From Escherichia coli (lineage in GTDB: Bacteria; Pseudomonadota; Gammaproteobacteria; Enterobacterales; Enterobacteriaceae), in the NCBI RefSeq assembly GCF_003334335.1, contig NZ_QOWQ01000008.1: a stretch of DNA of 64,000 bases; one strand, given 5' to 3'. The translations under genes and the position numbers were made by a program. Position 1 is the stretch's first letter, and every line of letters begins with the position of its first letter. Shown one piece after another: positions 28,982-29,422 of this stretch. A model generated the notes under the pieces. That model did not search any database, was not told the origin of the DNA, and saw only the letters and a program-made list of their open reading frames with translations.

Positions 28982-29422
28982 ATGAAACGACTTCTGATTC
29001 TTACGGCACTCCTGCCGTTTGTCGGCTTTGCACAGCCCATTAATACTCTGAACAACCCTAACCAGCCGGGGTATCAGATACCCAGCCAGCAGCGGATGCA
29101 AACCCAGATGCAGACTCAGCAAATCCAGCAAAAAGGGATGCTGAATCAGCAACTGAAAACGCAAACTCAGTTGCAACAGCAGCATTTAGAAAACCAGATA
29201 AACAATAATTCTCAGCGGGTGTTGCAGTCACAGCCGGGGGAGCGAAATCCCGCCCGGCAGCAAATGCTGCCCAACACCAACGGCGGGATGTTAAACAGCA
29301 ACCGTAATCCGGATAGTTCGTTGAATCAGCAGCATATGCTGCCGGAGAGGAGAAACGGCGACATGCTGAATCAGCCCAGCACGCCGCAGCCTGACATTCC
29401 GTTGAAAACTATTGGGCCGTAA
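28982..29422 (+). CDS. yhhA: Gln/Asn-rich secreted protein YhhA
   Basis: ORF track 146 aa; signal peptide then Q/N-rich low-complexity sequence. Confidence 0.85.

Follow-up and report, generated by a model that had tools for sequence, protein, structure and literature searches.

Hydrophilins and LEA-like (late embryogenesis abundant-like) proteins, for example YjbJ and YciG of Escherichia coli and DtpA/DtpB of Acinetobacter baumannii, are small, very hydrophilic and largely disordered proteins that are induced by general stress. CpxP, Spy and ZraP (LTXXQ) are small, basic, helical and Gln-containing proteins that are exported by the Sec pathway and induced by envelope stress. Braun's lipoprotein, Lpp, forms an alpha-helix in the periplasm with a conserved length of about 50-56 residues, SilE and PcoE are disordered periplasmic proteins that bind silver or copper, and CsgA, from which curli are made, joins a Sec signal peptide to a high content of Gln and Asn. 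Here, we compare with these systems the product of yhhA, a gene located at positions 28982-29422 (plus strand) of a 64,000-nucleotide stretch of E. coli DNA (contig NZ_QOWQ01000008.1 of assembly GCF_003334335.1), which is called the window below. YhhA is a Gln/Asn-rich protein with a predicted Sec signal peptide, a predicted helix of fixed length and a tail that is predicted to be disordered. We show that purifying selection constrains its Gln-rich part to a degree similar to that of the adjacent enzymes.

The feature is identical to the already catalogued E. coli gene yhhA, and both the gene and its family are present in databases. It is an uninterrupted open reading frame (ORF) of 146 codons plus stop, running from ATG to TAA, and the ATG at 28982 is the earliest start codon past an in-frame TGA at 28916-28918. 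The coding sequence is assigned to the DUF2756 family by Pfam PF10956 (E 1.1e-60, model positions 1-105 of 105), by PRK10350, an NCBIfam equivalog (265 bits, the cut-off being 136; model positions 1-145 of 145) and by the RefSeq annotation, which confirms the name YhhA given in a preliminary description of the window. The protein is indeed the name-giving E. coli member of DUF2756/PRK10350, from which it does not differ, and the gene order is the same as around the RefSeq yhhA. In Pfam, searched up to an E of 10, two marginal and unrelated matches (E about 0.15) were found beyond DUF2756. PRK10350 was the sole match in NCBIfam up to an E of 1, and a profile search of Protein Data Bank (PDB) sequences gave one chance-level poly-Q match (E = 6). 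Furthermore, when 1.84 billion representative proteins were searched exhaustively with a profile, 79 matches were obtained, all from the DUF2756 family itself, and a word-indexed search returned 467 clusters, every one labelled DUF2756, whose named sources are all Enterobacteriaceae. The range of the family thus covers Enterobacteriaceae and close kin. It takes in, for example, Buttiauxella, Kosakonia and Phytobacter, which are environmental genera, and some of its distant members come from Apirhabdus and from an Erwinia isolate. Within the species, 5425 of the 5426 complete genomes have the 551-nt region of the locus, which is chromosomal without exception and labelled 'yhhA: DUF2756 family protein'; this core-gene distribution includes a K-12-type O16:H48 strain.

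Residues 1-17 (28982-29032, plus strand) read as a Sec-type signal peptide with predicted cleavage before Q18-P19. Judged by eye, it comprises an n-region (MKR), a 13-residue hydrophobic core and small residues at -3 and -1 (G-F-A before Q-P), and it has neither a lipobox Cys nor a twin-Arg motif. A17, Q18 and P19 are invariant among 30 Enterobacteriaceae homologues, and in 29 of them G, A, V, S or C occupies position -3. YhhA therefore carries the sequence features of a Sec-exported protein cleaved by signal peptidase I, and its export is predicted on this basis. The mature protein (129 residues, starting with QPINTL) would consist of about 22% Q, 14% N, 11% P and 5.5% M, as calculated for a chain shorter by one residue; it has seven Met, two His and zero Cys, Phe or Trp, with a grand average of hydropathy (GRAVY) of -1.40, an isoelectric point of about 10.4 and a net charge of +4. 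Gln and Asn together account for 47 of its 129 residues (36%), against 7.9% pooled across the 61 other window ORFs of at least 150 aa, the richest of which reaches 15% (binomial tail for YhhA 7e-20). Its best 80-residue segment (residues 21-100) holds 36 Q/N, against 18 in the next-best window ORF.

The preliminary description had presented YhhA as a secreted low-complexity protein dominated, after a signal peptide, by Q/N/T repeats, an unusual composition for an E. coli periplasmic protein. The Q/N-rich peptide that it quoted is present in YhhA, its reading of a signal peptide agrees with the features listed above, and the composition is indeed unusual for this genome region. The 'repeats' stand in part: the yhhA DNA contains three degenerate 24-nt copies, about 75% alike and spaced by 30-33 nt, plus a few two-copy motifs, but Tandem Repeats Finder detected no tandem repeats in the gene. 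The G+C content of yhhA (51%) is close to that of the surrounding chromosome (53%). Generic low complexity, on the other hand, does not describe this protein, given its position-by-position conservation, its enzyme-like constraint and its predicted 50-residue helix.

AlphaFold2, supplied with a 30-sequence alignment, predicts a single helix at residues 34-83 with a predicted local distance difference test (pLDDT) score of 67-85, the overall predicted template modelling (pTM) score being 0.24. Together with its caps, this polar Gln-rich helix spans residues 34-86 (P-S-Q-Q-R to Q-S-Q-P-G; 29081-29239, plus strand) and constitutes the DUF2756 core. Its conserved ends resemble helix caps, with a Pro-Ser N-cap (P-S-x-x-R) and a Gln-Pro-Gly C-cap (Q-P-G), and exactly 50 residues separate the two caps in each of 81 members of the family, down to 33-45% identity with E. 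coli. The helix is preceded by a conserved Asn/Pro-rich N-terminal segment (residues 18-33; 29033-29080, plus strand) that is predicted to be non-helical: the model shows no secondary structure there (block-mean pLDDT 50-67), and among the 30 sequences N21, N24, N25, P26 and N27 are invariant and P29 and Y31 are kept in at least 90%. It is followed by an Enterobacteriaceae-specific C-terminal tail (residues 87-146; 29240-29419, plus strand) that is predicted to be disordered, with pLDDT block means of 53 for residues 81-90 and 44-49 for residues 91-146, and that ends with a conserved IPLKTIGP. Distant full-length DUF2756 members are short (88-115 aa) and have no tail. They retain the signal peptide, the motif N-P-S-Q-Q-R-M/L-Q-x-x-M, the Gln-rich stretch and the motif Q-R-V-L-x-S-Q-P-G.

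Moreover, YhhA contains five Met-Leu motifs, all on the plus strand, and four of them are located in the tail. The one within the helix, K-G-M53-L54-N (29138-29143), has M53 and L54 invariant in the 30 sequences. In the tail, Q-Q-M95-L96-P (29264-29269) keeps L96-P97 in at least 90% of the sequences, position 95 being M, V, P or L. G-G-M103-L104-N (29288-29293) is kept in 29 of the 30, Q-H-M119-L120-P (29336-29341) has M119 and L120 invariant, and G-D-M128-L129-N (29363-29368) is at least 90% conserved. Four of the five motifs are thus conserved in at least 90% of the genera. When the mature sequence was shuffled 100000 times, five Met-Leu dipeptides arose 9 times only, and their number is thus non-random.

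In the alignment of 30 YhhA sequences, taken from different genera, 26 columns are invariant and another 35 nearly so, and the conserved blocks include NNPN, Q-Q-K-G-M-L-N-Q-Q and Q-Q-Q-x-L. In six of seven genus groups, codons 18-86 accumulated 0.01-0.08 non-synonymous changes per codon, and ggt, ugpQ and ugpC taken together from the same genomes accumulated 0.02-0.06. Within Escherichia, the values are 0.018 for the helix part and 0.024 for these three genes, the latter reaching 0.02-0.05 in the other genera with a conserved helix part, and the ratio of non-synonymous to synonymous rates (dN/dS) of codons 18-86 between Escherichia species is 0.006-0.013. The tail evolves differently: codons 87-146 change 3-5 times faster than the flanking genes (0.03-0.2 per codon in six groups, 0.32 in Lelliottia/Leclercia). 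Over its whole length, YhhA is 60-83% identical to its counterparts in other genera, compared with 83-93% for Ggt and 79-91% for UgpQ, and this faster overall evolution is due to the tail.

Rare in-frame length alleles of yhhA, encoding 96-165 aa and each found in one to few sequences, occur in E. coli assemblies. For instance, one carries a 17-residue duplication (163 aa) and another a 38-residue deletion (108 aa), both in the part corresponding to window positions 29081-29419. The junctions lie in a region of short direct DNA repeats, suggesting that these alleles arose by replication slippage. Since such indels arise readily and are yet absent between species, selection probably acts on helix length.

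Between Escherichia species, the synonymous rate (dS) obtained with the Nei-Gojobori (NG86) method is about 1 in the Q-rich DNA. When window positions 29033-29419 are compared with five loci, synonymous differences per codon within Escherichia amount to 0.24 in codons 18-86 and to an unusually low 0.08 in codons 87-146, the value for the three flanking genes ggt, ugpQ and ugpC being 0.18. With like-for-like codon counts, this excess is not present in Citrobacter, Enterobacter, Buttiauxella and others; a generally raised synonymous rate in Q-rich DNA was thus rejected, the excess being confined to Escherichia. A recombination mosaic, together with the bias of NG86 for two-fold codons, probably explains it, and the synonymous contrast suggests that recombination breakpoints lie inside yhhA. 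In a separate observation that agrees with such breakpoints, the complete E. coli genomes fall into two allele classes, one of 2934 genomes with an identity of at least 99% and one of 2469 genomes with 95-99%.

The promoter region of yhhA carries, in an alignment of the spacer from 16 genera, a conserved sigma-S-like candidate element, TAAACTTAA. The candidate -10, GTAAACTTAA (28946-28955, plus strand), is nearly invariant and reads TAAACT then TAA, which resembles the sigma-S -10 consensus. At the -35 position relative to it, phylogenetic footprinting reveals a conserved AATCATCGT (28922-28930, plus strand) that may be a non-canonical -35 or a regulator site. Another block, TAAGCCTGGT, is conserved at 28897-28906, and a Shine-Dalgarno sequence, GGAGGA (28970-28975, plus strand), lies 6 nt 5' of the ATG and is kept as GGAGG(A) in the 16 genera. 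A simple sigma-70 scan found no yhhA promoter.

Published data place yhhA among the general-stress genes controlled by RpoS, and its expression rises when cells enter stationary phase, after a cold shift, in mild acid and upon envelope damage. In genomic SELEX (systematic evolution of ligands by exponential enrichment), an RpoS holoenzyme peak maps to the ggt-yhhA spacer (PMC5493296). The yhhA transcript increases together with rpoS at the growth transition in O157 (PMC2241611), and the gene is among the RpoS-regulon genes induced by cold shift (PMC4057180). It was also identified as a multi-stress hub in a meta-analysis that included oxidative stress (PMC9501238); an inhibitor of LolCDE raises its expression 5.6- and 9.9-fold (PMC5105897), and acid raises it slightly (PMC2270276, PMC7824302). 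Expression, on which the preliminary description had made its proposal depend, is documented at the protein level as well, as both the E. coli and the Salmonella protein have been found by mass spectrometry. YhhA was recovered with envelope proteins, in the same extract as OmpC, Pal, SodC, ZraP and RbsB (PMC9731836), and its level dropped together with RpoS, OsmY and YbgS in one proteomic data set and together with Spy in another. Its published capture by a ppApp probe was probably unspecific, that of a basic periplasmic protein.

The most likely role that these features suggest is the following. YhhA would be exported by means of its Sec signal peptide and would act in the periplasm of non-growing cells, under RpoS control, as a non-enzymatic stress protein. 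As a hydrophilic basic rod prolonged by a disordered tail, it could bind or shield one or several envelope components or unfolded clients, through both its polar helix and its multivalent Met-Leu motifs, and would be closer to a protectant of the hydrophilin or holdase type than to a catalyst. We regard it as an evenly balanced proposition that YhhA is a non-enzymatic periplasmic stress protein acting in such a manner, the mode of action being deduced. Like hydrophilins and LEA-like proteins, YhhA is small, stress-induced, largely disordered according to the model and very hydrophilic, its GRAVY being below the hydrophilin limit of -1. It has no sequence relation to them, however, and owes its hydrophilicity to Gln and Asn instead of charged residues, Gly or Ala; its predicted periplasmic export and its capped helix of fixed length are further differences. 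It also resembles CpxP, Spy and ZraP in being small, basic and Gln-containing, in its predicted export and helix, and in its induction by envelope stress. However, Pfam gave no LTXXQ or Metal_resist match for YhhA up to an E of 10; a single helix is predicted, as opposed to a hairpin or cradle, and control is exerted by RpoS, not by Cpx, Bae or Zra.

Several observations weigh against a protectant role of this kind. The proposed mechanism is drawn solely from the anatomy and the regulation of the protein. The Gly content (5.4%) lies below the value of more than 6% that Garay-Arroyo and co-workers reportedly set for hydrophilins in 2000. The confidence of the helix model is only moderate, as the scores given above indicate. 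Fourier analysis of helix hydropathy detected no period above shuffled sequences (26% of which do as well), although the family-mean hydropathy peaks weakly at 3.7 residues. Conservation of the helix is not one-sided either: its per-column periodicity is not significant, 2116 of 5000 shuffles (42%) being as good. An 11-residue stripe that had been picked by eye along the helix was dropped after this shuffle test. With neither amphipathic periodicity nor a conserved face, no binding face can be named. Moreover, distant DUF2756 members contain 1-4% Met, and M43 is the sole invariant column in their alignment; Met richness is therefore not family-wide, and the motifs of the tail cannot be the ancestral function. 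Between Lelliottia and Leclercia, the helix part is poorly conserved, with a non-synonymous rate of 0.227 per codon, the flanking genes having 0.063. Finally, a helix whose length is so strictly kept would be no less expected of a protein with a specific structural partner than of a generic protectant.

In the window, ggt (27120-28862, minus strand) is divergent from yhhA, from which it is separated by a 119-bp spacer, and ugpQ (29409-30152, minus strand), followed by ugpCEAB, is convergent with it. The 3' ends of yhhA and ugpQ overlap by 14 bp (29409-29422). A terminator-like hairpin of ugpQ (29387-29358, minus strand, 13 pairs) falls within the yhhA coding sequence, and the first plus-strand terminator-like site after yhhA is found only at about 30981. 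Given this tail-to-tail overlap, the hairpin inside yhhA and the lack of a nearby plus-strand terminator, the two transcription units must read into each other. The yhhA/ugpQ pair appears in the ExcludonFinder list (PMC12288877), and the overlap is not present in most other genera. The order ggt, yhhA, ugpQ, with the same orientations, is found in 78 of 80 species-level Enterobacteriaceae loci. The neighbourhood of distant members is alike, with the pirin gene yhhW, asd, yhhN, tusA, zntA and ftsY. Some of these members still adjoin ugpQ, and others stand alone, both ggt and the ugp operon being missing. As distant members persist without ggt and ugp, the adjacency reflects an inherited gene order, as opposed to a functional operon, and gives no evidence of shared function; a functional linkage of yhhA to ggt or ugpQ was rejected for this reason.

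The preliminary description had also placed yhhA next to ggt and to an 'AT-rich toxin islet'. These neighbours are correct by their coordinates, but the implied link to the islet finds no support: the AT-rich stretch (24500-27000, G+C 30-35%) lies on the far side of ggt, and its gene yrhB has a full-length match in one of the 80 species loci, with short partial matches in two more, against conserved synteny of yhhA in 78. The islet (24500-27082) contains a 392-aa Hcp-like ORF starting with MSNIVYLTVTGEQQG, an uninterrupted 164-aa ORF at the position of yrhA, and yrhB; a K-12-type record has IS1 after yrhA at the islet position, so that the strain of the window is not of the K-12 type. On the other side of yhhA, the ugpQ gene, which separates yhhA from ugpC, contains a published genomic SELEX peak for the holoenzyme of the flagellar sigma factor (PMC5493296). 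In the spacer, a hairpin in the ggt leader (GGGG-CAA-CCCC, 28883-28893, minus strand), located some 20-30 nt before the start codon of ggt, remains paired in the 16 genera although its sequence varies, and its stability is not above that of shuffled sequences (z 0.42); it could be a conserved leader element of ggt. In Rfam, the region 28700-29700 had no more than two matches, both at chance level (E 0.38 and 0.85) and well under the gathering scores.

Other explanations were considered for YhhA. The protein could be a structural rod of fixed length, whose 50-residue helix forms a coiled coil or docks on a matching partner so as to serve as a spacer or ruler in the envelope, the tail motifs providing anchorage. 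The constancy of the cap-to-cap distance at identities down to 33%, the conservation of the capping motifs and the fact that indels, easy in Q-rich DNA, are seen as rare alleles only all favour such a rod, and Lpp offers a loose parallel as a periplasmic helix of about this size and of conserved length. However, neither a conserved face nor a significant hydrophobic periodicity of the heptad or hendecad type is seen in the helix of YhhA. In addition, YhhA has no lipobox, membrane anchor or known peptidoglycan-attachment motif, and lacks in particular both the C-terminal Lys that links Lpp to peptidoglycan and the heptad pattern of Lpp. Self-association of the helix also found no support: AlphaFold gave no confident bundle for three helix copies joined by Gly-Ser linkers, confidence being lost relative to the monomer (mean pLDDT 38, pTM 0.27), which, for an artificial construct with a shallow alignment, is weak evidence. 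We therefore hold a rod of this type to be unlikely as the main role. An involvement of RNA or of the neighbours appears highly improbable to us. According to this explanation, the protein sequence would be of secondary importance: convergent transcription of yhhA would interfere with the 3' end of the ugp operon, as in an 'excludon', or YhhA, being rich in Gln, would supply glutamine to periplasmic Ggt. The 14-bp overlap, the ugp hairpin inside yhhA, the missing plus-strand terminator, the ExcludonFinder listing and the divergent transcription of ggt from a conserved 119-bp spacer all point in this direction. Nevertheless, purifying selection acts strongly on the amino-acid sequence of YhhA, the gene stands alone where ggt and the whole ugp operon are missing, and most other genera lack the overlap with ugpQ. 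Furthermore, Ggt needs a free gamma-glutamyl compound, and peptide-bound Gln is no substrate for it.

The amyloid, metal-binding and type III effector readings of YhhA find little support. The preliminary description had suggested looking for amyloid propensity, and the exported segment could in principle be a functional amyloid, or prion-like Q/N domain, that assembles into fibres as curli do: with 36 Q/N in 80 residues, YhhA exceeds the classical threshold of 30 per 80 for Q/N-rich domains, attributed to Michelitsch and Weissman (2000), and it shares with CsgA a Sec signal peptide, and thus predicted export, and a high Gln/Asn content. The Q-rich part is nevertheless predicted to be a helix with capped ends, as opposed to the beta-solenoid of CsgA, and the 11% Pro and the net charge of +4 of mature YhhA also argue against this reading. 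Pfam gave no curlin repeat (PF07012) or other amyloid family up to an E of 10, conservation is position-specific at a fixed length and so goes beyond mere composition, and neither nucleator nor secretion genes of the csg type lie nearby, the neighbours being ggt and the ugp operon. We consider a functional amyloid very improbable. A Met-based scavenger or metal binder, in which exposed Met, with His, would bind Cu(I)/Ag(I) or would be oxidant targets repaired by MsrP, is improbable, though less strikingly so. Seven Met in 129 residues, five conserved Met-Leu motifs of which one follows a His (Q-H-M-L-P), and the M39-x3-M43 pair on the helix would suit this function. YhhA is similar to SilE/PcoE in size (about 140 residues) and in its predicted disorder; it would be exported like them and also carries recurring short motifs containing Met. 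The multi-stress induction of yhhA, which includes oxidative stress (PMC9501238), would agree with a role of this kind. Against it stand the two His and the absence of Cys, the 1-4% Met of distant members, the lack of any metal-binding family in NCBIfam (E up to 1) or Pfam (E up to 10) and the chromosomal core location, which contrasts with the metal-resistance islands of SilE/PcoE. Moreover, the published expression studies considered here (stress, acid, cold, LolCDE inhibitor, growth transition, proteome) report no response of yhhA to copper or silver. Lastly, a 2018 preprint (bioRxiv 10.1101/364117) proposed that YhhA is a type III effector mimicking substrates of the ATM kinase through clustered Ser/Thr-Gln (S/T-Q) motifs, and its description as a validated effector of enteropathogenic E. 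coli (EPEC) could not be traced to its supporting reference. With 22% Gln, the abundance of such motifs follows trivially. In addition, YhhA has what reads as a classical cleavable Sec signal peptide, its regulation is of the RpoS type and not of the Ler type, and it is encoded by a core gene of E. coli (5425 of 5426 genomes) that non-pathogenic genera possess as well. Buttiauxella, Kosakonia and Phytobacter are not known for injectisomes of the LEE (locus of enterocyte effacement) type. An effector function is the explanation to which we give the least credence, its probability being minimal.

In E. coli, yhhA is one of the remaining 'y-genes', and it is core, expressed and part of the general stress regulon. 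Its biased composition would normally lead to the dismissal of such a region as low complexity. Our analysis alters no current concept: the gene, the family, the disorder and the S/TQ richness had been noted before, the last two in the preprint. It adds the capped 50-residue helix, the non-random Met-Leu motifs, the enzyme-like constraint, the very small size of the family and the sigma-S-like candidate element. Constraint, fixed length and helix caps turn a compositional curiosity into a testable structural hypothesis, for which the natural length variants of yhhA are ready material for experiments. More doubtfully, DUF2756 may stand for periplasmic stress proteins of a type not described before and confined to Enterobacteriaceae and their close kin. 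Such a protein would be built on a capped Gln-based single helix of strictly conserved length (50 residues, about 7 nm) serving as a rod or ruler, would make multivalent contacts through the Met-Leu motifs of its disordered tail and would be deployed by RpoS in order to protect or organise the envelope of non-growing cells.

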